NCBI GenBank assembly: GCA_025839675.1
Contig: CP104013.1
Coordinates: 3,360,001 to 3,392,000, forward strand
Direction: 5' to 3'
Source: Candidatus Lokiarchaeum ossiferum
GTDB lineage: Archaea > Asgardarchaeota > Lokiarchaeia > Sigyniarchaeales > Promethearchaeaceae
DNA: 32,000 nt
Shown here: in pieces, positions 2,509 through 25,287 of the stretch
Layout of the letters: every line of letters starts with the position of its first letter
Position numbering within the stretch: position 1 is the stretch's first letter
Notes under the pieces: model-generated
What the model saw: only the letters and a program-made list of their open reading frames with translations
What the model was told of the DNA's origin: nothing
The model's database searches: none
Translations under genes and position numbers: made by a program

Positions 2509-2539
2509 GTTAAATTAAGCCTATATTTATTTTGTGAAG

Positions 2540-7519: not shown

Positions 7520-8698
7520 ATGAACCAACTTCGAGATTCAATTATGGAAGAACATAAAATTGATGAAAATTCAGATGACGTTCCAAATTTAATTTCTAAA
7601 AATCAATGGAATTCTCCTCGATTACGATGGATTGATCAAGTTCGAGGAGCAATAATGCTTGGATTAGTTCTTACGGTAGCTATTGATGTTGAAATCGAAA
7701 GCGGTTCTGTACTAGAATTCTTCCTTGCTCATGCAGGACGCGAAGCCACCTATATGACTCTGTATGATGTGGGGGCGGCGGCTTTTATTTTTATTATAGG
7801 ATTATCCATGGGTATTGCCTTTAAAAAACGCCAAAAAAGTGTTGGAATTCAAAAATCATTAGTTCATATAGGGATCCGCTTTCTGGCTTTATTCGCGGTT
7901 GGATTTTTAATTGTCATGGCGGATGGAGGGCTAATGCAAGAACGTGATGACCTTATTGTGATTCGATGGGACGTTGTCATTAGCATCGCAGTTACGTATT
8001 TGCTAACAACTCCGTTTTTGTTCATTAAGAAAGTACACCTCAGGTTTCTAGTTGGATTATGCTGGGCAAGTTTATATCAAGTATTGCTCCTTACGACTGG
8101 ATTACGGGCGTATGCAATTGCATCCAATCATGGAGGCATATTTGGAACGCTTTTTGGATATATCGCGATAAGTGTTATGGCATCTGCCATCGGGGAATAT
8201 CTGTATTTTGACTCCACTATTGAAGAAGACAAGAAATATCAGCATGTGCTCATCTTAGGAATATTTTTCCTTGTTTTGGGTGTTCTCATCGCGTTTATTC
8301 CGGGGATGGAAGCGGCCAAACGACAAGTATCATTAACTTACGTTATTATTTCTTGTGGGGTGACTATATTGGGGATGAATATCTTTATATTTTTTGATCG
8401 GAAGAAGAATTTGGAATTATCCTATTTGCGTGCTTATGGGGTTAATCCTTTTCTGATGTACTTTTTGGCCGAGATTCCCAGTTTTCTGATTGAACAGTTT
8501 ATTGGCACAGATCTGGGGATCACTCCGGAAATTATTGGAAATTTAATTTTGACAGTGATTTTACTGGGGGTTACTTCATTTATTGCAATTTTCACTTATA
8601 AAAAGAAAAAAATTATTCCAACCGAGAAAATCGCAGGTCTCGGATTTGTGTTTTTGGTAATCCTTGTAATTATTTTGCTATTGACGGGAAATCTATAG
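7520..8698 (+). CDS. Polytopic membrane acyltransferase-like protein (HGSNAT/DUF1624-like)
   Basis: 392 aa with about 10 hydrophobic helices. The N-terminal RLRWIDQVRGAIMLGLVL resembles the R-L-x-x-L-D-x-x-RG signature of the heparan-alpha-glucosaminide N-acetyltransferase-like family. It is followed by a YDVGAAAFIFIIGLSMGIAFKKR-type segment. Confidence 0.5.
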   Translation: MNQLRDSIMEEHKIDENSDDVPNLISKNQWNSPRLRWIDQVRGAIMLGLVLTVAIDVEIESGSVLEFFLAHAGREATYMTLYDVGAAAFIFIIGLSMGIAFKKRQKSVGIQKSLVHIGIRFLALFAVGFLIVMADGGLMQERDDLIVIRWDVVISIAVTYLLTTPFLFIKKVHLRFLVGLCWASLYQVLLLTTGLRAYAIASNHGGIFGTLFGYIAISVMASAIGEYLYFDSTIEEDKKYQHVLILGIFFLVLGVLIAFIPGMEAAKRQVSLTYVIISCGVTILGMNIFIFFDRKKNLELSYLRAYGVNPFLMYFLAEIPSFLIEQFIGTDLGITPEIIGNLILTVILLGVTSFIAIFTYKKKKIIPTEKIAGLGFVFLVILVIILLLTGNL

Positions 8699-8746: not shown

Positions 8747-10351
8747 ATGAAAAATCTTACTTTAAAAAAAAAAAAGAGCCGAGTTTATATAAGCATGGCG
8801 CTTTCCTTTCTATTTCTAGCTTTAATCCTTCTAGCTATTTTGATTCCAGTGATTTTTTTTGAATATGTTCGAAACAATGTTCTCACGTATTTTTTCTTTG
8901 GCTTAGAATGGAGAATTTCAACGATTCTGTTATTTCTCTTTCTTTTTTGCCTTGGAATTGGACTTGTCGGCTTCAAAACTTCAATAAAAGGAATCAATTC
9001 TCCGAAATTCGAAACAAAGATGAAAATCCCTTCCACTCCATTTGTGTGTGTGGGATTACTCTTGATCCTAGGAATTGCAAGTACATCATATTATGTTCCA
9101 TCATTGGGTGCAAATTCGGGACTTTCTCAAAAATATGGGCCATATCTCGGATTTCATGGGGATAATGAAATGATAATTGCCTGGGATTCATCCTTATCCG
9201 AACCTGCTTTGCTTGTGTATGGAACGGAACCTGAACATCTGGATTTGGATCAAGAAAGTACTGTAGAACCATGGTCTTTGAATGACAAAAATTTCCATCA
9301 CTATGTGATTTTAACCAATCTTACTCCCAATTCCGAGTACTTGTACAAAATCCCCCTCTTTAACAAAGAAATCTATCATTTCAAGACTGCTCCTCTCCCT
9401 GATTCGGGCGAACCGACAGTATTTACTATCGTGGGTGATATTCAAGGAGGATTTGCTGGGGAACGAGAGATGGTTTCTCAGATGGTCCAAGATCCCGATG
9501 GAATGGATTTTACTTGCATTGCGGGTGATTTAGTTAATGGAGATGATGTTCCTGCTCATTGGGCAACTATATTCCATAGTAAGGGCTATGGGCGCATCTC
9601 GGCTTCCGTACCATGGATGAATGTTCCTGGGAATCATGAACAATCTTGTGAAAATGAAAACTGCGGATTTCGTGAAAATTACAAATTGTTTTTTCAATAT
9701 AAATATCCCAGCAATAAAGTAAGTTTGCCCAATACACCTGATTATGGGTTATATTACTCATATAACTATTCCAATGTCCATATGGTTGCATTGGATAATT
9801 TTGATAATAATTCTTATTCTCAAGTGAATAACTATCCTCAAGGTTCATTTCTGACCACCGCCCAATTGGAATGGCTGGATCAAGATTTGACACGAAATAC
9901 GGATATGTGGAAATTTGTTTATATGCATGTTCCCATGTATTCCACTGGTGATTATGGCTCGAATCGCATACTTATTGATCAACTCGAACCTATTTTTGAA
10001 AAACACCATGTTGATGCTGTATTTTATGGGCATGATCATCATTTTGAATCATTCTATGTCAATCGGAGTTCTACAAATGGAACTTATCATTTTGTTGTTG
10101 GAACGGGGGGGGCAGGAACGGATGATTTAACTGATAGAACAGAATTAGGTGATCGTGCATGGACCGGAAAATTTCTTAATGTCAGTGAAGGTGAATATGA
10201 TACAACTCAAATGTATGGGTCCGAATATCAGTTATTTGGAGAAATGACTTATTGCTATATGAAAGTAAAAGTCGTTGGCACCATTGCTACTTTTTCCGCA
10301 ATTCGAAGTTCCGATGGTTCTTCCATTGTGGAGTTTGTTATATCCAAATAG
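8747..10351 (+). CDS. Membrane-anchored calcineurin-like metallophosphoesterase, purple-acid-phosphatase-like
   Basis: 534 aa with about three N-terminal TM helices. These are followed by a PAP-type N-domain and the five phosphoesterase motifs in order: VGDIQGG, AGDLVNGDD, PGNHE, MHVPMYS, GHDHHFE. It has many NxS/T sequons. Confidence 0.8.
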   Translation: MKNLTLKKKKSRVYISMALSFLFLALILLAILIPVIFFEYVRNNVLTYFFFGLEWRISTILLFLFLFCLGIGLVGFKTSIKGINSPKFETKMKIPSTPFVCVGLLLILGIASTSYYVPSLGANSGLSQKYGPYLGFHGDNEMIIAWDSSLSEPALLVYGTEPEHLDLDQESTVEPWSLNDKNFHHYVILTNLTPNSEYLYKIPLFNKEIYHFKTAPLPDSGEPTVFTIVGDIQGGFAGEREMVSQMVQDPDGMDFTCIAGDLVNGDDVPAHWATIFHSKGYGRISASVPWMNVPGNHEQSCENENCGFRENYKLFFQYKYPSNKVSLPNTPDYGLYYSYNYSNVHMVALDNFDNNSYSQVNNYPQGSFLTTAQLEWLDQDLTRNTDMWKFVYMHVPMYSTGDYGSNRILIDQLEPIFEKHHVDAVFYGHDHHFESFYVNRSSTNGTYHFVVGTGGAGTDDLTDRTELGDRAWTGKFLNVSEGEYDTTQMYGSEYQLFGEMTYCYMKVKVVGTIATFSAIRSSDGSSIVEFVISK

Positions 10352-10403
10352 TTTTTTATTGTGAAAAAATCAACCCTTAATAAAAAAACCGTAATGAAAA
10401 ACC

Positions 10404-11942
10404 ATGCGTGTAAGAAATCGAACATCAATCAAAATAAAAACAATTTTCACCATTTTGTTAATCTTTTCGCCTTTTACCTTCTTCACAGCTCTTGGAATCC
10501 GGGTTGCAAGTATTTATGATGACATGTTATCATTCCAATATGAAGTAGGCCAACCAAATCCCGATGAAGATTTTCTCTATCCAACCGCCAATTATACGCG
10601 CATGAATGCAATGGCGCGTGTATATGATTATTTATATCAAAAAAATCATCTGCCCTTAAATTTTACCGCGACCTGTGACTATGTTGATGAAAATTATACC
10701 GAAGTAGCGAGTTATCAGTTTTCTGATAATGGGGCACTTTGGACGGGCATTCCCATGGCCGGATGGGTGTTTCATTATGTCGCAGCTCAAAATGAAGGGA
10801 ACGTAACAGATATTGCCTACGCTCTTGAGGTGATTCAACGTATGGTAAATGGATTTTCCATGCTGATGATCGTACCTAATGGAGGATTGGGACCGGAATA
10901 TTCTGGAATTCTGGCTCGAGGTTGGGCAGGTCCCGAACATAAAGATATTCATCCCTCTCTTTTTCAAGATCATATTCGGCATTTTAACGGTACGGGAGAT
11001 TATAGCAATTATCGATGGCGGGGGCATACTTCAAATGATGAATATGCAGGATTCTACCTCGGATTAGCTGTATGTCTGAAATATGTTGAAGATCCTTATG
11101 TGCAAACGACTGTGGGATTAATTGTTGAACAACTCGCCAACTATATGCGACAAACTAACTTTTTAGGGATCAATGGACCCGGCGGACCAAGTGGTGTAGA
11201 GCAAAAGGCACGGGTTTATACGGGAGGTTATTGGGTCTCCCTTTTATTAAAAATGGCTGCGATGGTAAATCCTGAAGAATATGAAGAAGACTATTATCAT
11301 TATGTGGCCGCAGAAATGGGGTCTTTGGCTGCTGCCGAATCGGCAGATACCGAATCCATGGCGAACTATTATGCTTACAATTTCGCTCATTGTGTTGTAT
11401 TTGCATTTTTGTTATTGGAAGGAACCGAAACCAAAATTGGACAACATTACTACAATCACTATTTCGATTCTTTGCGTACTTATACTCAATATCATCGGAA
11501 TCCATGGTTCAATGTCATTTTTCTAGCCCTATCTGCAAAACCGGGAGATTATCCTATTATCGAACGAGATATCGAAGATCAGTTGTTGCGGATGCAGATC
11601 AATCATTTTCCAGATCGCCATTATCCAACCTTGCCTGTTCCAGATTCCTATGAACGGAATATGGAAATCCCTGCTATTGAAGAAGACTTGAAGGATCACA
11701 ATTGGTGGACCCTTTACAAACTTTTATTTATTGAAACAGACTGGCAAGAAACCTACTATACGAAACCCTTAACAGTAGAATATATGCGTTCTTCCCACTT
11801 CATTTGGGAGAAAAATCCTTGGGAATTGGGGAGTAGTAGTAATAATACCTTACATGAAGAACCAGGTGCGACGTTTTTCACGCCTTATTGGATTGGAAGG
11901 GCTTTTGGGTTTATTCAACCAACAGGAATACGGGTGATTTAA
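10404..11942 (+). CDS. Uncharacterised signal-anchored extracytoplasmic protein, family A (paralog of 20786-22372)
   Basis: 512 aa with an N-terminal anchor (IFTILLIFSPFTFFTALGI) and many NxS/T sequons. It shares blocks with the other copy: SDNGALWTG, IVPNGGLGPEYSG, RHFNGTGDYSNYRWRGHTSNDEYAGFYLGLA, LLLKMAAMVNPEEY, NYYAYNF, HRNPWFN. Confidence 0.7.
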   Translation: MRVRNRTSIKIKTIFTILLIFSPFTFFTALGIRVASIYDDMLSFQYEVGQPNPDEDFLYPTANYTRMNAMARVYDYLYQKNHLPLNFTATCDYVDENYTEVASYQFSDNGALWTGIPMAGWVFHYVAAQNEGNVTDIAYALEVIQRMVNGFSMLMIVPNGGLGPEYSGILARGWAGPEHKDIHPSLFQDHIRHFNGTGDYSNYRWRGHTSNDEYAGFYLGLAVCLKYVEDPYVQTTVGLIVEQLANYMRQTNFLGINGPGGPSGVEQKARVYTGGYWVSLLLKMAAMVNPEEYEEDYYHYVAAEMGSLAAAESADTESMANYYAYNFAHCVVFAFLLLEGTETKIGQHYYNHYFDSLRTYTQYHRNPWFNVIFLALSAKPGDYPIIERDIEDQLLRMQINHFPDRHYPTLPVPDSYERNMEIPAIEEDLKDHNWWTLYKLLFIETDWQETYYTKPLTVEYMRSSHFIWEKNPWELGSSSNNTLHEEPGATFFTPYWIGRAFGFIQPTGIRVI

Positions 11943-11944
11943 TC

Positions 11945-13816
11945 ATGGTGATAATAGATGCGAAAATTCTATCGAAGGAGGAAATTGAGACACTAAATGC
12001 TCCTAATTCCTCAAAATTAAAACTCAAATGGGTATTTTTATCTATCGGGATTATTTTATTCATCCTTGCCATCTTATTCTATGTATTTGCCTGGAATATT
12101 GCCTTCCTTGCAATCGATATTACATATAATCGGGAGACCTTTAGCCTCAATCTCTCTATTCTTTTTGCTTCCGTTCTTCTGACTGCAAGTTTGCTTGTTA
12201 TCTCTCAAGTCTGGATGAATACCAGTAATTATAGCGAAAATTCACTTCATCTGGAAAGATTCTCGGAAAACATTGAAACTCCTCTTTACAATGGTAAAGT
12301 TGATCGAAAGATGGAGGAAGTGGATCAAATCCAGTTCCGCCACTATGTAACCAGTCGGTTTATCGCAGCCATTATAATTCTATTATTAGCAGCCATCAAT
12401 ATGTCTGTATTTGGCACTGCCATTGATGATGAAAATCATCTGGGGAGTTGGTTTTTTCTGGGGGGACCCTCAATGTTCTTTCCTATGAGTGCTTTCATGT
12501 TCTTAGTCGCTCTTGGTTTATTGGGTTATACCTTATTTTCGACAGCTATCTTTACTTTTACGAAAACGAAACATTTCTATTTGATTGAAGAACGACGAAT
12601 TTTTATTCCTTTGATGACCGAGATTCCTCGTGAAAATATCCGAGGCATCCGTATAACCAATGCAAAAACGGGGCCAAAGTACTTTTGGATCATACTCGCA
12701 GGGTTTAATTTGATCCTTTGTTTTACAGATGGCTTATATTTTCTAACTAATGAATTTGCTTTTGGATCGGGATTAATTGTGGGAAAATTTTATATCCTTA
12801 CGGGAATTGGACACTTAATTGCGATTGGGATTTTAGTGTTCAAACATCAAAACATGTTGGAAATAGTAACAAACGATAAAATCTATGAACTTTACTTCTC
12901 CACCCCCGCAGCTCCCATGGTAAAAGATGGAATTTTAGCTTTGTTTAACTTATACCCTCCAATTAACTCTACATCGATGCTTCCAAAAAAATTCTTACGG
13001 GATGGTCGCAATTTGGTTACAGGGCTATTCTTTTTACTATGTGCTATTCTTAGTGCTGCATTGTATCGTGGAGCAGGTGTTCCAGTAAGAATTCCTCTCT
13101 ATATTTTTGGGGCCGTTTTAGTGGTTCGGGGAATTAAAGAGGATTTTACAAACAAAAATGGGCTTCAAATTGAAAAAAACGAGGAAAAACAAACACTATA
13201 TCTGAAAAAACGATTTGGATGGTTCCAATCGAACTATAAGTTTTCAAATTTTGCTTCTAAATCCTTACAAGTAGAGTACCAGATGAAAAAACTAAATACT
13301 TTTGATGTGCTAATGGGAATTTCCTTCGGATTTGTTTTGGGGTTAAATCTTTGTTCCTTTTTCTATATCGTACCCAGTAATTCACTTGCAAGCGGGATGA
13401 AAGTGTTTCACATCATTGGATCTATTATTTTGTTCTTCATTGTTATTGCAGTGATGATAATGCCAACCAATTCTTTGATAATTGAGAACAAATTTTTATC
13501 GTACTCCTATCCAATTCCAGGAATACTATCAGAAGCCCAACAAAAAACCATGGAAGGGAAAAATATCTTTGAACGATTGTTCCTCAGGTGGAAAAATGTA
13601 TACATTTATCATTCGGAAGGATTCTGGTATCGCATTGCATTGATTGTAATGAGTTTCTTCTTTGGTATGATCTTTTATGGACAATATGTTGCCTCTTTTG
13701 GAATTTGGTTTGTTCCATTGATCTTATTAATTGTGTTGATTGGATATTTTATTACTCGAGAAATAGTCCAACGAAGAAAACAAAACCCTTCCATACAAAA
13801 ATTACAGGAAAACTAA
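11945..13816 (+). CDS. Uncharacterised polytopic membrane protein, family B (paralog of 19304-20782)
   Basis: I place the start at ATG 11945, which is 2 nt after the family-A stop and has GGGTGAT 8-14 nt upstream. The listed 11888 start would overlap the upstream gene. The protein has at least 12 hydrophobic helices. Two soluble loop modules are shared with B' (ERRIFIPLMTEIPRENIRGIRITNAKTGPKYFWIIL; KQTLYLKKRFGWFQSNYKF...LNTFDVLMGISFG). Confidence 0.65.
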   Translation: MVIIDAKILSKEEIETLNAPNSSKLKLKWVFLSIGIILFILAILFYVFAWNIAFLAIDITYNRETFSLNLSILFASVLLTASLLVISQVWMNTSNYSENSLHLERFSENIETPLYNGKVDRKMEEVDQIQFRHYVTSRFIAAIIILLLAAINMSVFGTAIDDENHLGSWFFLGGPSMFFPMSAFMFLVALGLLGYTLFSTAIFTFTKTKHFYLIEERRIFIPLMTEIPRENIRGIRITNAKTGPKYFWIILAGFNLILCFTDGLYFLTNEFAFGSGLIVGKFYILTGIGHLIAIGILVFKHQNMLEIVTNDKIYELYFSTPAAPMVKDGILALFNLYPPINSTSMLPKKFLRDGRNLVTGLFFLLCAILSAALYRGAGVPVRIPLYIFGAVLVVRGIKEDFTNKNGLQIEKNEEKQTLYLKKRFGWFQSNYKFSNFASKSLQVEYQMKKLNTFDVLMGISFGFVLGLNLCSFFYIVPSNSLASGMKVFHIIGSIILFFIVIAVMIMPTNSLIIENKFLSYSYPIPGILSEAQQKTMEGKNIFERLFLRWKNVYIYHSEGFWYRIALIVMSFFFGMIFYGQYVASFGIWFVPLILLIVLIGYFITREIVQRRKQNPSIQKLQEN

Positions 13817-13820
13817 CAAC

Positions 13821-15407
13821 ATGGAAAATAATTCCCCAAATCCTAGAATTTTGAATGAAAAAGAGTCAGATTCAAAAGGTTGGAAAACGATCCTCAAGGA
13901 TTTTAAGCCCATTTTGTATTTTATCCCCCTAATTCTTCTAATTAGCTCTGATGAAGCGACTCTTCTAGTAAATGAGGTGATTATTGTAGTCTATTTTAAC
14001 TTAGAAAGTAACCTTACCATGTTTGGTGCTTTACTTGGTTCTTCTCAAATTGTTAAAGCAGTCTCCCTTCTGATCTTTGGTTATCTTGCTGATAAATTTC
14101 AACGAAAAAAACTTTTATTATTTTCCTCTCTCGGTTGGGCGATAACGGATATTTTAATTGGGTTTTCGCGCTCCTTTGCGGGATTATTCATATTTCGGTT
14201 ATTAAGCTCTGCATGTTCTGGCGCAGCAGCATCAGTAATTCTAAGCCTACTCGCTGATTCGTTCTCCAGTGATGATCGTGGATTGTCCTTCGCGATATGG
14301 ACCATGATCAGCACAATTGGGGTAGCAATTGGAGGAATACTTTGTACCGCTTTCAATAAAGTGAAAGTAGATTTTGACGCAGATGCGGATGATTTCATCT
14401 CTCGAATTCAAAATATTCGTGGTACAAATTCCCTCGAAATAATCCGACAATCTTGGCAGACTCCCTTTCTTGTATTTGGTTTAATTGGAATTGCATTCAT
14501 TATTCTCGCGATGTTTTTCAAAGAACCGAAACGTGCTGCGAAAGAAAAAATGCTCGCTACAGTATTGGCTCATGAAAATGTTGATTATAACAAGTTTTAT
14601 TCCATTAAATTTTCAGATTTAAACCATATTTGGAAACGAAAAACCAATTTCTTTCTCATTATCAATTTTGTTGATACAATTTTAGCTGGAATGATTGTTG
14701 GATTTCTTATTATGTGGATATCCGTAGATATGGGCTTTGATGTAAATAATGCTTCTTCAATCGGATATTTATTGCTATTTCTGGTTCCAATTATCGCAGG
14801 TCTCGTATGGGGGAATTTTTATTGGCCTAGAAGAGCGGATAAGGCTGTGAAAGCTGGAAATTCTACAGCCCGTGTAAGAATGGCCACATTTCTAGGGTGG
14901 GTTCATCTACCCTTCTTATTCGCCGGATTTGCTATTATCCCAAATTATCAAAACTTAACGCTGTTTAAAGGGGCACTGCAAGCCAATCCTATCACCTTTG
15001 GCATCGGACTGGTCGTTATGGGATTATTGATCGGGATTGGAATGTCTTTTGAAATGGCTGTGGGGCCGCTTCATTACTCTGCAATGGTAGATGTGAATCT
15101 TCCTGAGCACCGTTCTACTATGATCGCCGCAGCATCTTTCATGGATGCCATCGGTAGAGCTCTTGGAACTACATTGGGTGCAGTGATCATGGATTATTTC
15201 CTAAATGTTCGCCAGAGTCCCAGTCCAATTTCAGAAACCCTCCTATTTTCCTTACTCACCTTTGGTATTGGATCAGGATTACTTTGGCTCCCAATTTATA
15301 AATATGCAAAAGGAGATTTTGCAGAAATCGCAGCGATTTTAAAAGAACGAAAAATCCAAATTGAAATAAACTATAGGATGAATAGAAAGGAAACTGATAC
15401 TTCATGA
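13821..15407 (+). CDS. Major facilitator superfamily transporter
   Basis: 528 aa with about 12 TM helices and an MFS motif-A-like GYLADKFQRKKLLL between TM2 and TM3. It starts 4 nt after the family-B stop. Confidence 0.75.
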   Translation: MENNSPNPRILNEKESDSKGWKTILKDFKPILYFIPLILLISSDEATLLVNEVIIVVYFNLESNLTMFGALLGSSQIVKAVSLLIFGYLADKFQRKKLLLFSSLGWAITDILIGFSRSFAGLFIFRLLSSACSGAAASVILSLLADSFSSDDRGLSFAIWTMISTIGVAIGGILCTAFNKVKVDFDADADDFISRIQNIRGTNSLEIIRQSWQTPFLVFGLIGIAFIILAMFFKEPKRAAKEKMLATVLAHENVDYNKFYSIKFSDLNHIWKRKTNFFLIINFVDTILAGMIVGFLIMWISVDMGFDVNNASSIGYLLLFLVPIIAGLVWGNFYWPRRADKAVKAGNSTARVRMATFLGWVHLPFLFAGFAIIPNYQNLTLFKGALQANPITFGIGLVVMGLLIGIGMSFEMAVGPLHYSAMVDVNLPEHRSTMIAAASFMDAIGRALGTTLGAVIMDYFLNVRQSPSPISETLLFSLLTFGIGSGLLWLPIYKYAKGDFAEIAAILKERKIQIEINYRMNRKETDTS

Positions 15408-16888
15408 AAGTCTCATTTGGAAAAACGATTATTACACCACAAAATGGTGGCCATGGTGTGCCGATGGCCGGTTATACTCGACTATTTTTTGCTCAAGGGA
15501 AACTAGATGATATTTTCGCTCGAGGTATGTTGATAGAAGAAAATACAAAAGAAAGCGATCCGAAACGACTTCTCGTGATCAGTCTGGATCTGTTAAAAGT
15601 CCCTTTGGCAATTAGTGAATATATTAAAATAAAAATTCAAGAACAAACAAATTTTGGGGACAATTCAGAGCAAATTTTAATTCATGCGACCCATACTCAT
15701 TCTGCACCTGATTTAACGGGAGAATTTTATTGGCCAGGGTCTTCCTTAAATGTATTTCGTGGCATCATGTTTGGGGCTAATAGAAATGATAGATATATTG
15801 TATTTTTCACCCACCGGATCATTACCATGGTTCGTCAATTAATTCTTGATCTCACACCCTCGAAAATCGCGCAAGCGACTCACCTAATAGAAGAAAATAT
15901 TGTGATCAATCGTCGAAATCCGCTTAGAAAATCCAAAATTCCCCTCTGGTTGCTTGTATTTAAAAGAATTGATAATGATCAAATTTTTGGCATCCTTGGT
16001 AATTATGGGATGCATCCGACATCCTTATCCAATCGGAATGATAAATTGTCTGCAGATTATCCAGGAAGGTTTTGTTATCATATCGAATCGGAAACAGAGA
16101 ATAAAATTCATGCAATTTTCATTACGGGGGCTGCCGGGGATCTTAATCCGATTACTACCTGCGGTACCGATTTTGAAACCCTTGAAAATGATCCAAAGGC
16201 TCGAAAAACCGTATATGATCAGCTCGGAACTTACACGCATACAAAGAAGCTAGGCTTTTTCTTGGGAAATACAGCTTTGCAGGTGGCACGTGCCGTCAAT
16301 AAAGATGATTATTTTGATATAATTAGGATTCGCGGTTTTACCAAAGCAATTTCCATAATCATTGAAGATAAGCAGCCTTATGTCTATAAATGGGGGACAT
16401 GGTTGACAAATAAGCTGGTTTTTTATCTCAAACGACTTTTTTTGTTTCCAATGGCCCTTAAACATGCAAGTGGGCAAGACCCCAATTTTCCAGCAATGTA
16501 TTTAACCTACGATTCTAAGAAAAAAAAGGTCAAGGATCGCATGAAAGTGAATACATTGCTTCAATTATTGCATTTAAAACTATATAAGTCTATTAATCCT
16601 TCTGATGTTTTAAAAATAAATCTCATTGGAGTTCCAGGGGAGGTTTTCGAAGATTTAGCTGAAAAACTTATTCATATACAACCTGAGATGACCTCAAATA
16701 ATCATATATTCCAGAATTCCAATGATTGGGTGGCATATTTATTTGAACTAAAAGATTATATTGGACAAGGCGGATATGAACCGATTGCTTCTGCTTCACC
16801 CCATTGTGGACAAGAAATCTTGAAAAAATTCAAAATGTTTTTTAATGAAATTCAAGTCGAAATCGAAAAGATATCATTTGATATATAA
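15404..16888 (+). CDS. Neutral/alkaline ceramidase-like hydrolase (N-terminal catalytic domain family)
   Basis: 494 aa. The order GKTIITP...GVPMAGYT...ARGMLIE...RLLVISLDLL...ILIHATHTHSAPD...VINRRNP...YGMHPTSLSNRNDKLSADYPGRF matches my recollection of the neutral ceramidase catalytic domain. The ATGA start overlaps the MFS stop. Confidence 0.6.
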   Translation: MKVSFGKTIITPQNGGHGVPMAGYTRLFFAQGKLDDIFARGMLIEENTKESDPKRLLVISLDLLKVPLAISEYIKIKIQEQTNFGDNSEQILIHATHTHSAPDLTGEFYWPGSSLNVFRGIMFGANRNDRYIVFFTHRIITMVRQLILDLTPSKIAQATHLIEENIVINRRNPLRKSKIPLWLLVFKRIDNDQIFGILGNYGMHPTSLSNRNDKLSADYPGRFCYHIESETENKIHAIFITGAAGDLNPITTCGTDFETLENDPKARKTVYDQLGTYTHTKKLGFFLGNTALQVARAVNKDDYFDIIRIRGFTKAISIIIEDKQPYVYKWGTWLTNKLVFYLKRLFLFPMALKHASGQDPNFPAMYLTYDSKKKKVKDRMKVNTLLQLLHLKLYKSINPSDVLKINLIGVPGEVFEDLAEKLIHIQPEMTSNNHIFQNSNDWVAYLFELKDYIGQGGYEPIASASPHCGQEILKKFKMFFNEIQVEIEKISFDI

Positions 16889-17794
16889 TATTTTTTTCAT
16901 TCTTTTCCAAGCAAAAATCGCCATCATCGGAGAACAGATCAAAATAATGGGTTGGTACCAGAGAAAATGAAGGAACATATACCTTATGCTAATTAATCCT
17001 GCAATAAGGGCAGTGAAACAAATAGCAAATAATATACCCCACTGGAATTCTTCAAATTTTGCATAAGTGGGAACATTATCCGCTTCCTGTTCTGGTATAT
17101 TCAAAACTCCATAGTAGATCCAGGCCGCTATCAAAATCCCAATTATAATGGACCAAAATCCATCACTTAAAAAGTGATCGCCTTCAAAAACTCTTCCTAA
17201 CGCCATTAAGATGGCATATCCTATGGTTAAGATAAAAACGGGAACTATTATTCCTTTTCTTTTGGTTCCAAGTGAGATAAATGCGATAACAACTAGAAAA
17301 ATGGCCACATTAGTATGTCCGGATGTAAAAGATCCGTGACTTAAAGCCTCAGTAAAACTTAATTTACCAAAAATCCACATATGGGAATACATTGAAGGAT
17401 CATCCGCTACTACTCCAGGGCGAGCCCGTGCAAAAAGGACTTTGAAGCCTCGGTTGATTATTGCTAGTACCAAAATTACCGCCAGCATAAATCCAGAATA
17501 TTTTCGACTTGAAATGAGTTTGTCTTGCATTTTTGGGATATAGGAAACTAAATAGACGCCTAATGATAAGAGGATCAGAATATATGAGAAATCTTGCCCC
17601 CCAAAACGATCCCCATCAAAAAGTGTCCTATCAAAGAAATTGGCATACGCCGATAGAAATGGGCTAGAAGCCGTCATTGACACAAACGATTCAGATATTC
17701 TCAGATCATAAATTCCAAGAAAAATTGATCCGAGTATTGCAATCCCTGTTAAAATAGGAAGAAAAACCCTTACCATAGTTTTTTTTTCACTCAT
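16874..17794 (-). CDS. PAP2-family lipid phosphate phosphatase (copy 1)
   Basis: 306 aa integral membrane protein. It has the three PAP2 motifs KVLFARARPG, SFTSGHT and GRVFEGDHFLSDG. Its 3' end overlaps the convergent ceramidase-like gene by 15 nt. Confidence 0.8.
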   Translation of the reverse strand: MSEKKTMVRVFLPILTGIAILGSIFLGIYDLRISESFVSMTASSPFLSAYANFFDRTLFDGDRFGGQDFSYILILLSLGVYLVSYIPKMQDKLISSRKYSGFMLAVILVLAIINRGFKVLFARARPGVVADDPSMYSHMWIFGKLSFTEALSHGSFTSGHTNVAIFLVVIAFISLGTKRKGIIVPVFILTIGYAILMALGRVFEGDHFLSDGFWSIIIGILIAAWIYYGVLNIPEQEADNVPTYAKFEEFQWGILFAICFTALIAGLISIRYMFLHFLWYQPIILICSPMMAIFAWKRMKKILYIK

Positions 17795-17838
17795 TAATAT
17801 AATGGAGATTTTATTTGGTTATAAAATTAATATTAAAT

Positions 17839-18405
17839 ATGCAAATAATTACAGAATCGGGGTATCAAGAGGCTGCAAGTTCGTACGCTCATTTGTTTGA
17901 AATCAGCACCCCCTCTGCTATGATGATTGAAAAAGATCTTTCCTGGCTAGTACGGGATGCAGTACCTCAAGGAGGAACTTTAATGTTAGGAGATTTATTA
18001 GTCGTTAAACATGCATCTAAAGTGGTTGAAACGCATCCGTTTCCAGAATGGGTGATTCAGCTCCACCGTATTGGGAAAAAATCTGGAAAAGTGTATGCCA
18101 TTATACCTAAATTAACTCCAAAACAAATCAAGCGCTTCAACCGGAAGGATTCTTTCCGAAGGAAAGAAAAAACTATTGAATCTTTAACCGCTCTTTCCCC
18201 TGAAGATTTTCTTGCGATTGAATATCAAGAAGGAATATGCATTAAAATTCCAGCAAACGTTCCCCATGAATTCATAAGTGTGGTTGGCGAAGGGGAAGAT
18301 GTTCCCTATTGCCAAGTATTTGAGCCGAATTTTGCCCCCATGGCAGATTTAATGAAGTTTGATGTAACCAAATTCTATGATCTCGATTTTGAGTTGCATT
18401 TCTAA
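17839..18405 (+). CDS. Small hypothetical protein, possible cupin-like beta-barrel
   Basis: I prefer ATG 17839 over the listed TTG at 17815. It has weak cupin-like elements (ETHPFPEWVIQLHRIG; ICIKIPANVPHEF) separated by a basic loop (KQIKRFNRKDSFRRKEK). The function call is weak. Confidence 0.45.
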   Translation: MQIITESGYQEAASSYAHLFEISTPSAMMIEKDLSWLVRDAVPQGGTLMLGDLLVVKHASKVVETHPFPEWVIQLHRIGKKSGKVYAIIPKLTPKQIKRFNRKDSFRRKEKTIESLTALSPEDFLAIEYQEGICIKIPANVPHEFISVVGEGEDVPYCQVFEPNFAPMADLMKFDVTKFYDLDFELHF

Positions 18406-19286
18406 TTATTTTTTTCTTTGTTGAGAATCTTCTTTTCATAACGAGGAATTCGGAAGATAATATAATAAAACAAAGCATTGATGATATAAACCATTCCGAA
18501 AGCCCATAGTACATCACTTGCATGGTGAGCTCCCACTACAATTCTTCCAACACCAGTTAAAATTCCCAAGATGATACTAATTGTTAATCCCGCCCATTTA
18601 AACACCGAAAAAAGTTGAATTTTTGTTTCTTTCTTTCCTTTTTGAACAATTCTTGCCCAGAATTTCGGATGCATAAAAATGAAGAAGAAAATGACAAACA
18701 CTGCAACAACAGATACGTGACCTGAAGGGAAGGATTTTCCAGCATCAATTAACGAGGGATCCTTGAGGAATGCGGGTTCCCATACTGAATAAAAATCCCA
18801 CATCTCTGGATCTGTGCTATTTGGCCACAACATGGTTTGTCGAGGACGGGGCCGCCCGTAGAGATCTTTAAATATGACATTAACAAAGATCACCACACCT
18901 GTAAACGCGGAGAAGAACGCATAGCTCCCATAAATCAGCAGGTAACCTAATTTTTTGTAGTTAATCGCTCCAATAATAATCATTGGGATCAAAGTAACAT
19001 AAAGGAAGTATTCAAAGATATCATTATACTCATTCAGAAAATACCATGGTTGTACATTTTCTAAGTAAAAGCGTTCCCCTACCGGTAAACTCTCATCATA
19101 GAAAAGGTCGGTTATAGCTTTATCAATTTGTCCATCATTAAATTTTAAAATAATAGTGCCCACCAGAAGAATGATCCCAAAAAGTATAAAAAACCGATAT
19201 TTTCTCATCCAATTCTTTATGTTCTTCTTAATTGGTTCAGTTTCCAATTTTGCGTTTTCTGATTTTTCTGTTATTGCTCTCACCAA
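18402..19286 (-). CDS. PAP2-family lipid phosphate phosphatase (copy 2)
   Basis: 294 aa membrane protein with PAP2 motifs KDLYGRPRPR, SFPSGHV and GRIVVGAHHASDV. It starts 17 nt after the B' stop. Its 3' end overlaps the cupin-like gene by 4 nt. Confidence 0.8.
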   Translation of the reverse strand: MVRAITEKSENAKLETEPIKKNIKNWMRKYRFFILFGIILLVGTIILKFNDGQIDKAITDLFYDESLPVGERFYLENVQPWYFLNEYNDIFEYFLYVTLIPMIIIGAINYKKLGYLLIYGSYAFFSAFTGVVIFVNVIFKDLYGRPRPRQTMLWPNSTDPEMWDFYSVWEPAFLKDPSLIDAGKSFPSGHVSVVAVFVIFFFIFMHPKFWARIVQKGKKETKIQLFSVFKWAGLTISIILGILTGVGRIVVGAHHASDVLWAFGMVYIINALFYYIIFRIPRYEKKILNKEKNN

Positions 19287-19303
19287 GGATTTAATTTCTA
19301 TAA

Positions 19304-20782
19304 TTAAAAAATAGCAGTTATTAGTGTTAGTAAAACAATTATTGCAAACCCAAAAATTCGAAAAATACTTTCCTTTTTCAACGATGGAAGGAACAAGCTC
19401 TTTTTCAACGTGTGAAAATCCCCTACTGAAATGAATTTTGTAGTAGGGGGATATATTTGATATGAATCTTGAGAATTTCCATAATTAAAAACAAGGTAAT
19501 TTAGTGGAATTAACAGATAGATGAAACACCCACAAATAATTACACCCCACATAATCGTCGTAAGTATCAAATCCACCAGGATTAATCCATTGAATATATT
19601 GAGAAATCGCCAACTCCAAAGAAATTCAAGCGTTGACAAATAAACCAATAATCCCATTCCAAGGATATCAGTAAAGTTTACACTTCGGAATTGAGTTTTT
19701 CTCCATAGACCATTTTTTAGATCAATATCACAAAATCGGATGGATGTCCAATATCGACCATTTTTTACTCTATATTTAGATTTTTTCTGATGCTGATCAA
19801 TTGTCACTAGGGTTTCTTCGGAAAGATCGTTTTGGAAGGCTTGTAATAGAACGTAAGCTCCAAAAGTCAATCCAACCATGGAAAGATCGGTTCCCCATAA
19901 AAATTCCGCGGAAGTACCTATGATCGATGCGATTAAAACAATCATACTAAAAATGATTCGAAAATAATTTCGTTGCTTCCCTTGTTTGCCCCCTTTTGAA
20001 TCATTTTGATTGCGAAACACTTCCCACAAATTCTCTTCAGTTTCTGATGGATCAATATAGAGATCCAAAAGTTTGCAAACTTCTTCGGAGATTTCTTGAT
20101 TTTTTTTCATGGGGAAAAAATTTAAAATATATTTCTTCCATTCCGAATCGAAGGTTAACTGATGGTTTGGGTATAATAAGATGAAAATTGCCACCAGTAT
20201 ATCTATAAGTGCAGTAATTACCATCATGGTGGGGAGGATTTCATCTTGGGCGAGGGGTTCTCCGAACAGTGGAATTCCAAATTGCAAAATTCTTACTGCC
20301 ATCGGAATGAACAGAAGAATCCAGGTATGTTTAAACTTTAAACCAGTGTTAGTATATTTAATTTGGTTAATATCGGGGAGATTTATCTCAGAAAAAGTGG
20401 GAAACACGAGTTTTCTCTCTTGTATCTTGCATAAAGAACCGTTGTTGGCGATCTCAATTTTCTTCATAGAAAATAGGCAATATATAAGCATAAATATCCC
20501 CACAATAAGCGGAATTAATCCAACTGTATAGAAGAAAGAAACCCCTCCCAGAAAGACGGCAATTCCTTGCCCAATATATTCGCCTGTTGTAGGATGTTCA
20601 GGATGCCCAATTAAATTTCCAAGTAGGTTGTAATCTAATATTCCAACTATAAAAAGAGCAAGTCCTGCAAGCAAATAACTCCATGGAAGAGAGACAAAAT
20701 GAACTGTTTCTCCTTTCATCTCTTGCTTTTCATACGTAATGTGATTTTCCTTTAATTGAGGTATTGAAGGTTCGCGTTGCAT
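19304..20782 (-). CDS. Uncharacterised polytopic membrane protein, family B' (paralog of 11945-13816)
   Basis: 492 aa with many TM helices. It shares loop modules with B (IQERKLVFPTFSEINLPDINQIKYTNTGLKFKHTWILL; KKSKYRVKNGRYWTSIRF...VNFTDILGMGLL). The ATG lies 3 nt after the A' stop, with GGAGGGAT upstream. Confidence 0.65.
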   Translation of the reverse strand: MQREPSIPQLKENHITYEKQEMKGETVHFVSLPWSYLLAGLALFIVGILDYNLLGNLIGHPEHPTTGEYIGQGIAVFLGGVSFFYTVGLIPLIVGIFMLIYCLFSMKKIEIANNGSLCKIQERKLVFPTFSEINLPDINQIKYTNTGLKFKHTWILLFIPMAVRILQFGIPLFGEPLAQDEILPTMMVITALIDILVAIFILLYPNHQLTFDSEWKKYILNFFPMKKNQEISEEVCKLLDLYIDPSETEENLWEVFRNQNDSKGGKQGKQRNYFRIIFSMIVLIASIIGTSAEFLWGTDLSMVGLTFGAYVLLQAFQNDLSEETLVTIDQHQKKSKYRVKNGRYWTSIRFCDIDLKNGLWRKTQFRSVNFTDILGMGLLVYLSTLEFLWSWRFLNIFNGLILVDLILTTIMWGVIICGCFIYLLIPLNYLVFNYGNSQDSYQIYPPTTKFISVGDFHTLKKSLFLPSLKKESIFRIFGFAIIVLLTLITAIF

Positions 20783-20785
20783 GGT

Positions 20786-22372
20786 TTAATATCCCTCCAA
20801 GTATCCGTAATATTTCAGCATGTAATACGGGAGTGTATATGCCGCACCCGCATATTGTCTGATTGTGCTCGTAGTATTGAAAATGTTGACTCCATCTTCT
20901 TGGTATGGATTGCGATTCCATGAAGACGTAGTAGGATTCATCATTTCGATCGTGGCTGGTTTTAAATACCTCTCGCGAAATATTGCATCTTGTAACCCAT
21001 ACGTAAGCCACTGATACGTCGACCCAAAGGCGGTATTATCCACAAAATCCTTCCATTTTGCAATATTGGGATCAATGGTTGTCCAATCCCCCCCTAATTC
21101 ACTTCGGGCAATTGTTTGATTTCTTCCTCCGCATGTGGTATCTAAAGGAACCAAATTGAATTCATTGAATCGCCACAGTTGATCTAAGATATCCCATCGA
21201 ATATCATCTACTTTAAAAGATGCTTGTTTTTGAGATAAACTCGCTGCAGTAAGATAAACTGCATTTAAAAAGCCATTCCGATGTCCTCGATAGCTCGAAT
21301 AGGTTTTAGCTTGGAAATTTTGAAAATAGAGATCCACTAATCTTGGATCGTCTTCAACTAAAAATAAGCCCAAAACGACCATATTCTCGAAATATTGACT
21401 GTAATAATTGTCTATGTTGTCCATTTTATTTACAAACGGTGTCCGATTTACTTTTCGTTCTTTCACCAAGAAATATTGAAACAACTGCTCATATCTGACA
21501 TTTTCGGGATCTACTCGCATAGCCATCTTCGTGAGAAGCAATTTCCATTGAGAATAGCATGGAACCTGGAGATGAACTCCATTTGGTTTCCCATCGCCAG
21601 TCATTTCTTGCCAAAAACTACTTAAAAACCCTTCCATGGCTTGTAAAATGATCAATCTGGTTATTTCTTGCACTTCGGGCACATCCTGAACCAGCATCAA
21701 AGTGGCTGCAAGTCCCAAGAAATAGCCTCCTAATTCATCCTTACTCGTATAGAGACGAATTCTCCAGTCTGAATATTTCCCGGTGCCATTGAAGTGGCGA
21801 AATCCCTCATCAAAAATCCAAGTATAATTTCCATCAAAGCGTTGATCTGGGGAAGCATAAAAACGACCTATCGAAGTTCCCGGAAAATTTGGTCCCAAAC
21901 CTCCATTCGGAATTTCTATTAACAATCGTAGACCATAAAGCATTTTTTGCACTAATAAAAGCGCCTGGGCTTTTTCTTTCCCTTCAGGCAAAGAAGCATA
22001 ATCATAACACGCCGCCACCAGATTTTCAGAAGTGTGTAAAGCTCCATTATCGGTTCCATCATAGCTGATTATTTCCCCGGTAGATACATTTTTCACAAAT
22101 GATTGACTCAAATTCATCTTAAGGTGTTGTTCTTGGAATAATTCAAATTCGCGTCCAATATCTTCTAAGCGACTGAGATTGATAACACTTAATGGGTAAA
22201 AATCTACAGTTTCGGGAGGTGTTTCCATATAATCTGTTAAATCCGGTACTAATATACCCAAATAAAATGCAAAGTAAAATCCCCCAAAAATCAATGGGAT
22301 TAAAATCAGGGTGCTTTTCATAATTTTCCGCAGTTTATTCCACTTTTTATTTTGGATTTTCATTATCTTCAC
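20786..22372 (-). CDS. Uncharacterised signal-anchored extracytoplasmic protein, family A' (paralog of 10404-11942)
   Basis: 528 aa with an N-terminal anchor (STLILIPLIFGGFYFAFYLGILV). Shared blocks: TDNGALHTS, IEIPNGGLGPNFPG, RHFNGTGKYSDWRIRLYTSKDELGGYFLGLA, LLLTKMAMRVDPENV, NYYSQYF, HRNGFLN. Confidence 0.7.
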   Translation of the reverse strand: MKIMKIQNKKWNKLRKIMKSTLILIPLIFGGFYFAFYLGILVPDLTDYMETPPETVDFYPLSVINLSRLEDIGREFELFQEQHLKMNLSQSFVKNVSTGEIISYDGTDNGALHTSENLVAACYDYASLPEGKEKAQALLLVQKMLYGLRLLIEIPNGGLGPNFPGTSIGRFYASPDQRFDGNYTWIFDEGFRHFNGTGKYSDWRIRLYTSKDELGGYFLGLAATLMLVQDVPEVQEITRLIILQAMEGFLSSFWQEMTGDGKPNGVHLQVPCYSQWKLLLTKMAMRVDPENVRYEQLFQYFLVKERKVNRTPFVNKMDNIDNYYSQYFENMVVLGLFLVEDDPRLVDLYFQNFQAKTYSSYRGHRNGFLNAVYLTAASLSQKQASFKVDDIRWDILDQLWRFNEFNLVPLDTTCGGRNQTIARSELGGDWTTIDPNIAKWKDFVDNTAFGSTYQWLTYGLQDAIFRERYLKPATIEMMNPTTSSWNRNPYQEDGVNIFNTTSTIRQYAGAAYTLPYYMLKYYGYLEGY

Positions 22373-24164: not shown

Positions 24165-25274
24165 TTAATATGGGGACAAATCCGAATTCATGATTTGATA
24201 CCCGGAACTACGTACAATCGCCGATTTCAAGAATTGATGCCCAATGTTCACTGTGGATCCATCTCCACCGAAATGAATGATGTAAGGCACGGTTTGCTTG
24301 ATCCCTTTGTTCTTCATGATCCGATACGCGGTTGAAGCGGCATCGGCACAGGTAGCTCCACTCTCGAAGAGTTGGTGCATCCAGGATGCTTGCCACGAAG
24401 AGACATCATCTTTGCTGGTTGCGACTTCTAAACAACACGTATTGTTGAAATAGAGAATGTCTTTTCCTGCCACCATATCGGCCGCTGATCCGACTTGATT
24501 AATGACCATCCCTGCACCGCAGCCCGGGCAAAGACCGTGGCCTGGATTTATATGATGTTGGTCTTTCACTTTCACCATTTGGACTGCATACCGCAAGACT
24601 TTGTCATCTCCGCCGAAAGCTTGCAAGAGCTTGTTCAGGTTGGTATTGCGAGCCTTGACTTGAGTCATGATTTCGTCAATATTTTTCTCTAAAAATTCGG
24701 GTTTCAAGAGATGGCGGAATTTACCTTGGGATTTGATGAGATCTAAGACCTTGTCTTCATCCGTGGCGATATATTCGCCGTTGGCTTCATCACCCTTGGC
24801 CATGCCAGGAGCCTTATTGTAATAGTAGGTAGGCGTGCCGTCCTTCACCTTCATAGTGATTAGAGGCCAGTAGCCCGATTCAGTGGCGAGTTTGGCCACC
24901 TTTAGGGTGTCTTTTCCAGCATGTCGCCATCCTCGAGGACATGGGGCGTAAATTTGGATAAAGGCTCCCCCCTCTGTTTTCATAGCATCCATTACTTTGC
25001 CCATTAAGTCCATCGGATAAGCAATGTTAGCTGTTGCGAAATAAGCACTTTTATGACCTAACATAGAAAAACCGGGAATGAAGTCTTCTTTAATACCTAT
25101 CTTACCTTTGACTTTTTCGCCACCAGGACCTGTGGTAGTGCTTGCTCCGAATGGTGTGGTGCCCGATTCTTGAATTCCGGTATTCATAAAGGCTTCATTG
25201 TCGTACGAAATGTATAGGACGGAATGACGTTCTTTCCGTGCTAAAATATCTTCCATTTTAATTGTTGTTGTCAT
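24165..25274 (-). CDS. porB: 2-oxoacid (pyruvate-type):ferredoxin oxidoreductase beta subunit (TPP-binding), with circularly permuted motif order
   Basis: I place the start at ATG 25274, with GGTGAT upstream, 13 nt after the porA stop; this gives 369 aa. It contains YDNEAFMNTGIQ, CPRGW, QGKFRHL, PGHGLCPGCG, NNTCC and GGDGS. All are PorB hallmarks, but the usual C-terminal half comes first. Confidence 0.8.
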   Translation of the reverse strand: MTTTIKMEDILARKERHSVLYISYDNEAFMNTGIQESGTTPFGASTTTGPGGEKVKGKIGIKEDFIPGFSMLGHKSAYFATANIAYPMDLMGKVMDAMKTEGGAFIQIYAPCPRGWRHAGKDTLKVAKLATESGYWPLITMKVKDGTPTYYYNKAPGMAKGDEANGEYIATDEDKVLDLIKSQGKFRHLLKPEFLEKNIDEIMTQVKARNTNLNKLLQAFGGDDKVLRYAVQMVKVKDQHHINPGHGLCPGCGAGMVINQVGSAADMVAGKDILYFNNTCCLEVATSKDDVSSWQASWMHQLFESGATCADAASTAYRIMKNKGIKQTVPYIIHFGGDGSTVNIGHQFLKSAIVRSSGYQIMNSDLSPY

Positions 25275-25287
25275 GATAATCACCTGC

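Follow-up and report, generated by a model that had tools for sequence, protein, structure and literature searches.

What do two tightly coupled gene families without a known function do in an Asgard archaeon, and do the genes packed around them belong to the same system? The question is raised by a 32,000-nucleotide stretch of Candidatus Lokiarchaeum ossiferum DNA (contig CP104013.1, positions 3,360,001 to 3,392,000; the whole stretch is called the window below), in which two protein families, A and B, each occur twice. One A-B pair lies at the left end of a 12-kb block and a second pair, A'-B', lies on the opposite strand at its right end. An earlier note, made from the letters alone, had read this arrangement as a mirror-image duplicated cassette within a candidate undescribed envelope-lipid system. 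The genes of the block carry the locus tags NEF87_002860 to about 002870 and are without exception labelled ‘hypothetical protein’ at NCBI.

We propose, at a probability of roughly 45%, that A is an outward-facing glycan-active enzyme, that B is its dedicated membrane partner and that phosphorylated glycoconjugates are the substrate. A-B, and separately A'-B', would form an Asgard-specific two-protein membrane module, presumably as a physical complex. No known archaea are more closely related to eukaryotes than the Asgard archaea, whose surface and membrane biology has, to our knowledge, hardly been explored. In the literature library searched, neither topics nor locus tags led to a paper on the A-B pair, which we rate as a new putative ectoenzyme family with a new membrane partner. 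As L. ossiferum and Promethearchaeum syntrophicum are both in culture, the pair can be put to the test in either species. Work on it could reveal how Asgard cells build or recycle surface glycoconjugates, and any foreshadowing of eukaryotic endoplasmic reticulum (ER) and glycosylphosphatidylinositol (GPI) processing.

A conserved gene pair in Asgard archaea

All ten open reading frames (ORFs) claimed for the block and its left flank are present at the coordinates reported here, and the claimed spacings and overlaps are exact. In the left arm, A (10404-11942, + strand; NEF87_002862, 100% identical) is followed after 2 nt by B (11945-13816, +; NEF87_002863). In the right arm, the A-family paralogue A' (20786-22372, -) is followed after 3 nt by the B-family paralogue B' (19304-20782, -; NEF87_002869). 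The frame of B opens with a TTG at 11888, and the ATG at 11945 yields the NCBI-annotated product of 623 residues. The GTG start of A' differs from the deposited start, as its exact sequence is missing from the protein collection.

The relationship between the two arms is statistically significant. BLASTP aligns A and A' end to end over 552 columns with 30% identity (E 2e-56), and B and B' over ~415 columns with 20% identity (E 3e-12).

Is the A-B order a peculiarity of this genome? A locus scan with one genome per species found 32 loci, all in Asgard isolates or metagenome-assembled genomes (MAGs), one MAG being labelled Bathyarchaeota. Of the 38 non-redundant Asgard A genes, 31 are followed immediately by a co-directional B, so that the adjacency holds outside Lokiarchaeum as well, under Lokiarchaeia, Hodarchaeota and Sigynarchaeota labels. 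A single MAG can carry up to six A paralogues. The gap or overlap between the two genes amounts to a few nucleotides in a metagenome contig, in P. syntrophicum MK-D1 and in one MAG each of Hodarchaeota and Sigynarchaeota. Among the seven exceptions, four lie less than 1.7 kb from a contig end and three are true solo genes in a single MAG. This MAG is Promethearchaeia BLK3-3.bin.73 (loci L027, 10001-14566, and L028, 10001-14935). At L027, A is followed by two ORFs without a B-family match, whose TldD/PmbA-type look was noted by eye only.

The pairwise identity matrices of A and of the adjacent B correlate with r = 0.873, a value reached in none of 2000 permutations, and the nearest neighbour is the same for A and B in 22 of the 31 pairs. 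Judged by these matrices, A and B co-diverge. This fits the idea, already put forward in the earlier note, that the A-then-B coupling is the sign of a physical or functional complex.

The mirror image itself has a different origin from the one first imagined. Each arm has its own orthologues elsewhere, which identifies A/B and A'/B', on the basis of their sequences, as two separate ancient subfamilies and not as the products of one duplication event within the block. Orthologues of A' with 54-72% identity were found in loci L033, L036, L034, L013, L031 and L037. The B genes beside them are those most closely related to B' (32-42% identity); across genomes, the subfamilies sort A with B and A' with B'. 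A recent inverted duplication was rejected, given that no DNA-level inverted repeat joining the two arms was found, that A and A' are only 30% identical and that closer orthologues of each exist in other genomes. The relative placement of the pairs also varies: P. syntrophicum carries two pairs, one of each subfamily, ~30 kb apart, and L013 has two pairs in direct tandem. In the Promethearchaeum MAGs with loci L013 (8330-16340) and L029, a pair of a third subfamily (~44% identical to A) lies between A'-B' and a divergent gene for a metallophosphoesterase (MPE, see below), the resulting order being MPE(-) A B A' B' in direct tandem.

Protein A: a helical barrel predicted to face outwards

A matches no characterised family, and the earlier note could not assign it either. 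The 50 members of the alignment (A1) used for structure prediction and conservation analysis, which are A, A' and 48 homologues, gave no Pfam match at E up to 1. NCBIfam, searched with single sequences, gave none, and the PDB none with the single sequence or with the profile of A1. In total, 74 Asgard homologues were found.

The topology predicted from the letters alone is borne out. A and A' each have one N-terminal transmembrane (TM) segment and are thus signal-anchored, and both are rich in N-X-S/T sequons, which occur at about twice the expected number (7 versus 3.2 in A, 8 versus 3.4 in A'). Three sequons are kept in 37-49 of the 50 homologues. The basic N-terminus of A, its single TM segment and the enriched, conserved sequons together place the barrel of this type-II protein on the outside of the cell, a prediction from sequence features.

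The AlphaFold2 model of A has a predicted local distance difference test score (pLDDT) of 94.1 and a predicted template modelling score (pTM) of 0.92. A long N-terminal helix (residues 7-47), which comprises the membrane anchor and a short stalk, precedes an all-helical barrel; within the anchor helix, Pro23 is nearly invariant. A Foldseek comparison of this model with the PDB returned only (alpha/alpha)6 carbohydrate enzymes and one terpene cyclase. The matches include cellulases and glucosaminidases of glycoside hydrolase (GH) family 9 (best E 5.4e-4), GH76 mannanases, GH146 enzymes and AGE-type epimerases. According to the model, the likeness of A to glycoside hydrolases exists only at the fold level: it indicates a fold class and not family membership. 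A has the same overall toroid as the (alpha/alpha)6 carbohydrate enzymes (GH9, the alpha-1,6-mannanases of GH76, GH146, AGE epimerases and toroid polysaccharide lyases) and, like them, conserved acidic, Tyr, His, Asn and Arg residues at helix N-termini. Unlike A, these enzymes have no type-II anchor and no polytopic partner.

Assignments to individual families by sequence were tried and rejected. For GH9, no Glyco_hydro_9 match was found at E up to 1 in the 50 members, and no PDB match with the A1 profile. For GH76, there was no Pfam Glyco_hydro_76 match and the Foldseek E values are 0.02 or worse. The automatic UniProt name of A is ‘Alginate lyase domain-containing protein’; membership of the alginate or chondroitin AC lyase families was rejected, since none of the 50 members matched Alginate_lyase or Hepar_II_III at E up to 1 and no lyase occurs among the 50 best Foldseek matches. 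A weakly GH76-like gene stands divergently adjacent to A in a Sigynarchaeota locus (L004, 8642-9838).

Conservation points to a functional site. Across the 50 homologues, 24 columns are invariant, including H82, D108, N159, R172, S210, D212, Q243, Y322, E339, R365, D392 and D404. A' keeps every one of the family-invariant residues, as it belongs to the same alignment. Compared with 1.84 billion cluster representatives, the A profile detected 1055 relatives at E<=1e-3 and 506 at E<=1e-10; those which carry names are all ‘hypothetical’ and mostly from Promethearchaeota. By these profile matches, A represents the Asgard branch within a superfamily of over 1000 clusters, all uncharacterised. It gives access to this large group of (alpha/alpha)6 proteins (1055 clusters at E up to 1e-3), which could turn out to be a new family of carbohydrate-active enzymes. 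Of 86 distant relatives, all 86 retain D212; Y322 and N366 are each retained in 83, E339 in 75, R172 in 68, and H82 and H364 in 62. Several conserved residues are located at or beside the N-terminal ends of helices in the model, and the conserved residues would line a catalytic funnel.

Two domain fusions among the distant relatives support an extracellular, carbohydrate-related role of A. P0222 carries a dockerin and a ConA-like domain. In P0166 (998 residues, from a JGI metagenome), an A-like domain (46-353) is fused to a Metallophos domain (484-643), which mirrors the adjacency of MPE and A genes at seven Asgard loci. The gene context of two further distant relatives, P0161 and P0168, contains no B partner.

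Protein B: a duplicated membrane module

Like A, B matches no sequence family. NCBIfam gave no match for B or B', Pfam none at E up to 1 across 19 B members, and the PDB profile search was empty. Homologues were found only in Asgard data, by a profile search of limited reach (candidates were pre-selected) which returned the close Asgard set alone.

The AlphaFold2 model (pLDDT 73, pTM 0.70) shows ~12 TM helices arranged as hairpins with beta-strands after each, in agreement with the polytopic protein that had been claimed. The loops on the side of the termini and the beta-modules contain 38 Lys/Arg residues versus 2 on the other side, which argues that the beta-modules are cytoplasmic and that only ~65 residues are exposed outside. 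The outer loop 158-177 holds the best conserved motif of the family, D-D-E-N-H-L-G-S-W-F-F-L-G-G-P-S-M in B, with the family consensus G-x-W-x-F-L-G-G-x-S-x-F-Y. An hhalign comparison shows that residues ~136-323 share homology with residues 354-529 (probability 91.8%, E 7.5e-7), so B consists of a duplicated TM-TM-beta4-TM-TM-beta2 unit. By this profile comparison, it is an internally duplicated module of four TM helices and a cytoplasmic beta-module. B' has no counterpart of the first TM hairpin of B (alignment A3). Few polar residues are conserved in the family; B is therefore unlikely to be an enzyme or a typical transporter.

The best Foldseek match of B is EROS/CYBC1, which serves NOX2 as a chaperone in the ER; this match falls short of significance (E 0.15, probability 0.82, TMq 0.16). 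With EROS and the bPH proteins (YdbS/YdbT), B shares a TM hairpin followed by a cytoplasmic PH-like beta-module, and EROS is the dedicated partner of another membrane protein, a role which we likewise propose for B. B differs from them by having two modules, each split by a second hairpin, and by its conserved outer loop. Membership of the bPH_2 or EROS families was rejected, as the 19 members have no such Pfam match at E up to 1 and the fold match to EROS is weak.

In P. syntrophicum (L001, 11973-12635, CP042905.2), a gene of the EMC3/TMCO1 family (DUF106, Oxa1-like insertase) lies directly downstream of B. It is followed by conserved genes without a family (333, 326, 312 and 285 residues), which recur in Promethearchaeum MAGs.

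The genes between and beside the pairs

Do the remaining genes of the block form a unit with A-B? Their domain calls in the earlier note were borne out by Pfam matches above gathering scores. The MPE gene (8747-10351, +) ends 52 nt before A. Its product is of the purple-acid-phosphatase type, combining Metallophos (74.6 bits, gathering 21.5; E 1.9e-20) with the N-terminal domain Pur_ac_phosph_N (36.7 bits, gathering 30; E 6.6e-9). Three N-terminal TM segments and seven sequons were found, and the catalytic domain is predicted outside. MPE is the sole neighbour that recurs across subfamilies and lineages: it adjoins A-family genes at seven loci and in three subfamilies, co-directional with A in Lokiarchaeum and divergent in Promethearchaeum.

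Downstream of B, after 4 nt, follows an MFS transporter (13821-15407, +; Pfam MFS_1, E 1.4e-29), which obtained only generic NCBIfam matches, all under cut-offs. It overlaps by a 4-nt ATGA with a ceramidase-like gene (15404-16888, +). The product of the latter matches the N-terminal domain of Ceramidase_alk only (PF04734, 43.7 bits versus a gathering score of 32.1). Its alignment with PDB ceramidases spans only residues 6-250, keeping the Zn-site motifs of 2zws, A-T-H-T-H-S-x-P and H-x-T-S. A full-length neutral ceramidase was rejected, the NCBIfam model ceramidase_neut scoring 22.8 bits versus a cut-off of 1200 and the C-terminal domain being unaligned. We predict a cytoplasmic Zn amidase, as the sequence contains no signal, no TM segment and no sequon.

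The centre of the block is occupied by PAP2a (16874-17794, -; Pfam PAP2, E 1e-22), a polytopic member of the lipid-phosphate-phosphatase family whose 3' end overlaps the ceramidase-like gene convergently by 15 nt, and by a small soluble ORF (17815-18405, +; NEF87_002867), annotated with 188 and not 196 residues. The latter overlaps by 4 nt, again convergently, with PAP2b (18402-19286, -; Pfam PAP2, E 4.4e-19), a second phosphatase of this family which follows B' after 17 nt. PAP2a and PAP2b score 80.7 and 69.0 bits versus a Pfam gathering score of 27.2 and are true paralogues (E 2e-7), as had been proposed; the substrate-specific NCBIfam models PgpB and LpxF stay far below their cut-offs. The small ORF had been called cupin-like, a label that finds no support, as Pfam, NCBIfam and the PDB all gave no match. 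With this soluble protein and the ceramidase-like one, the statement that every recognisable component acts at the membrane or its outer face does not hold either.

Upstream of MPE, Pfam and NCBIfam identify an SIS protein resembling the GlmS isomerase half or NagB-II (3542-4648, +), a FadD-like long-chain acyl-CoA ligase (4772-6541, -), an LmbE/PIG-L-family deacetylase (6550-7491, -) and a GWT1/DUF1624-like polytopic acyltransferase (7520-8698, +). The deacetylase matches Pfam PIG-L with E 2.4e-30, and its best NCBIfam model is BshB1-like (109 bits versus a cut-off of 182). The acyltransferase match is marginal (34.1 bits versus 29.6), and UniProt names the protein DUF1624. The last three are counted with the conserved gene set of the block, and all four suggest aminosugar and acyl handling linked to it. 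PIG-L and AMP-binding homologues adjoin an A-B pair in P. syntrophicum too.

As a unit, the 12-kb block is not conserved, so the one-system claim stands only in part: its gene set persists, in shuffled order, in Lokiarchaeum and Promethearchaeum. Despite rearrangement, P. syntrophicum holds PIG-L, the small ORF, PAP2a, AMP-binding, ceramidase-like, A, B, MFS, PAP2b, MPE, A', B' and His-phosphatase genes within ~50 kb, and the same set is partly conserved in MAG HM1_B6_4 (L006, L033). In Promethearchaeum, the ceramidase-like gene adjoins A, and a PAP2a orthologue stands beside the small ORF, which is kept there in L009 and L010. Only in these two genera does A-B come together with the FadD-like ligase, the PIG-L gene, PAP2a plus the small ORF, and the ceramidase-like gene, and none of the labelled MFS matches outside the window adjoins an A-B pair. 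Elsewhere, A-B is surrounded by genes for ABC ATPases and permeases, GDPD, HEAT-repeat proteins, MFS_2 and acyltransferase-3.

No glycosyltransferase, lipid synthase or flippase was recognised among the scanned genes (8747-22372 and flanking genes). Nothing therefore ties A-B directly to a lipid substrate.

A model for the pair and its alternatives

How could A and B work together? We envisage that A is tethered by its single N-terminal helix and short stalk, with the N-glycosylated (alpha/alpha)6 barrel outside the cell. A pocket formed by D212, Y322, N366, H364, R172, H82 and D108 would perform acid/base chemistry on a sugar, making A a hydrolase, a lyase or an epimerase. B would be a non-catalytic partner of ~12 TM helices, with two cytoplasmic split, PH-like beta-modules as its bulk. 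It may bind the TM helix and juxtamembrane region of A one-to-one, by means of the anchor helix and the conserved outer loop. Through this docking, the active site of A would remain at the surface of the membrane and be linked to the cytoplasm. The recurring, outward-facing MPE and the two local PAP2 phosphatases suggest that the substrate is a phosphorylated surface glycoconjugate, possibly lipid-linked. The MFS transporter might bring fragments into the cell, where the cytoplasmic amidase, the deacetylase and the acyl-CoA ligase would process them. As far as the genes can be recognised, they encode hydrolases, transporters and an acyl-CoA ligase, and neither a glycosyltransferase nor a lipid synthase was recognised among those scanned; this suggests turnover or salvage rather than biosynthesis.

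Several observations weigh against this model. The three solo genes in one MAG mean that A can exist without B. The fold match of A is weak (TM-score 0.3-0.44, identity 8-11%), so that the term ‘carbohydrate-active’ derives from the fold class, and homology of A to its GH76-like neighbour at L004 was rejected (hhalign probability 0.1%). The model of B is of moderate quality (pLDDT 73), the conserved loop being poorly modelled. Among the neighbours, MFS and PAP2 are generic families, and the lipid and aminosugar genes co-occur with the pair in two related genera only, where inherited synteny is possible.

Other explanations have to be judged against the same facts. According to the first proposal for this locus, the whole 12-kb block is one envelope-lipid system, which remodels an amide- or phosphate-linked lipid or glycolipid or recycles a polyprenyl-diphosphate carrier after glycan transfer. 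We now regard this as unlikely. The tight spacing of both arms and the return of the same families within ~50 kb in P. syntrophicum, and partly in HM1_B6_4, speak for it. So does the chemistry of PAP2 enzymes, which dephosphorylate polyprenyl diphosphates and lipid phosphates. However, beyond Lokiarchaeum and Promethearchaeum the A-B pairs lack PAP2, ceramidase-like and this MFS gene as neighbours, the ceramidase-like protein is predicted to be cytoplasmic and scores 22.8 bits, with 1200 required of a true neutral ceramidase, and no lipid synthase, flippase or glycosyltransferase was recognised among the scanned genes. Moreover, A and B themselves show nothing lipid-specific. Of the envelope-lipid and glycolipid role, the glycan-processing part retains its footing, as the carbohydrate-enzyme-type fold of A fits it; a direct link of the pair to a lipid substrate does not emerge.

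A different possibility, drawn by analogy with the paired SusC/SusD genes of polysaccharide utilisation loci and in our view unlikely, is that each pair is a substrate-specific unit which captures and senses foreign polymers. Extracellular glycans or glycolipids, derived from partner bacteria or detritus, would be bound or cut by A, B might signal or gate uptake through its cytoplasmic modules, and neighbouring transporters and cytoplasmic hydrolases would finish the catabolism. As in SusC/SusD, A and B are adjacent, co-diverge and occur in several paralogous copies per genome with differing neighbours. The likeness is organisational only, for there is no homology, and the folds, the membrane system (a single archaeal membrane for A-B) and the taxa differ. 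The idea gains from MAGs that contain as many as six A paralogues, every one of them paired with a separate B, from variable and transporter-rich surroundings (an ABC ATPase at 9 loci, ABC-2 permeases, MFS_2, GDPD), from the catabolic genes of the window (FadD-like ligase, NagB-II/GlmS-C-like SIS protein, LmbE deacetylase, alpha/beta hydrolase) and from the dockerin on a distant A relative. It loses by the facts that B has no recognisable signalling output domain or transporter signature, that the short stalk of A suits membrane-proximal over bulk polymer substrates, and that neighbours of the ABC and MFS families are ubiquitous and could be there by chance. We find it quite improbable that A is no enzyme at all but a structural or adhesive surface protein whose toroid serves as a binding scaffold, with B as its membrane chaperone or anchor and the nearby genes as unrelated housekeeping. 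Such a role would suit the weak resemblance of B to EROS, a chaperone with a TM hairpin and a PH-like module, the lack of any catalytic family match for A and the poor conservation of most of the block with A-B. Yet D212, Y322, N366, E339, R172, H82 and H364 persist across otherwise dissimilar relatives in an active-site-like pattern, and MPE is repeatedly adjacent to A and once fused to an A-like domain.

The glycan-active ectoenzyme model can also be extended towards eukaryotes. With its Metallophos, PIG-L, GWT1-like, PAP2 and Ceramidase_alk genes, the window represents the same broad families as the enzymes of eukaryotic GPI and ER lipid-glycan remodelling, namely the metallophosphoesterases PGAP5/Ted1/Cdc1, PIG-L, PIG-W/GWT1, the dolichyl-diphosphate phosphatase of the PAP2 family and neutral ceramidase. 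PGAP5-type metallophosphatases remove phosphoethanolamine from GPI glycans (PMC10704324), and an Asgard origin of GPI-anchor synthesis has been reported (Nature 2026, PMC12872458). In the light of these two papers, a GPI-like remodelling process is conceivable. The GPI pathway has no counterparts of A and B as far as tested, and neither PIG-A, PIG-M/mannosyltransferase nor transamidase genes were found in the window. A strict GPI-pathway reading of the PIG-L and GWT1-like genes was not adopted, since the former obtains its best score as a BshB-like deacetylase and the GWT1 match is marginal. The boldest version of the ectoenzyme model, to which we assign very little likelihood, makes the A-B pair an innovation of the Asgard archaea: a polytopic protein with EROS-like modules (a TM hairpin and a split PH domain) would position a new class of glycan-active ectoenzymes on lipid-linked or surface glycoconjugates. 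Several specialised copies in each cell would shape the cell surface and its protrusions or contacts with partners. The B module could then be an archaeal relation of the membrane chaperones in the eukaryotic ER, and PIG-L, GWT1-like, Metallophos and PAP2 proteins would act in a pre-eukaryotic, GPI-like remodelling.

Further observations in the window

A defence-system reading was rejected, as PADLOC gave no meaningful matches, and no RNA genes were found in the window. At 1333-3460, ~18 kb from A', lie an alpha/beta-hydrolase gene and a gene for a 391-residue protein without a Pfam match. In the closely related MAG HM1_B6_4 (L033, 5437-9208), both genes immediately precede the A' orthologue and share its strand, with GDPD and PIG-L genes before them. 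Their placement in that genome indicates that the conserved gene set reaches past the 12-kb block. On the other side of the block, two long ORFs on the minus strand (24165-25403 and 25288-26511) overlap by 116 nt beside a gene (26525-27505) whose product contains POR and ferredoxin domains. By eye, the products of 24165-26511 resemble subunits of a 2-oxoacid:ferredoxin oxidoreductase, and the overlap has probably arisen because the start of the downstream ORF was extended too far.

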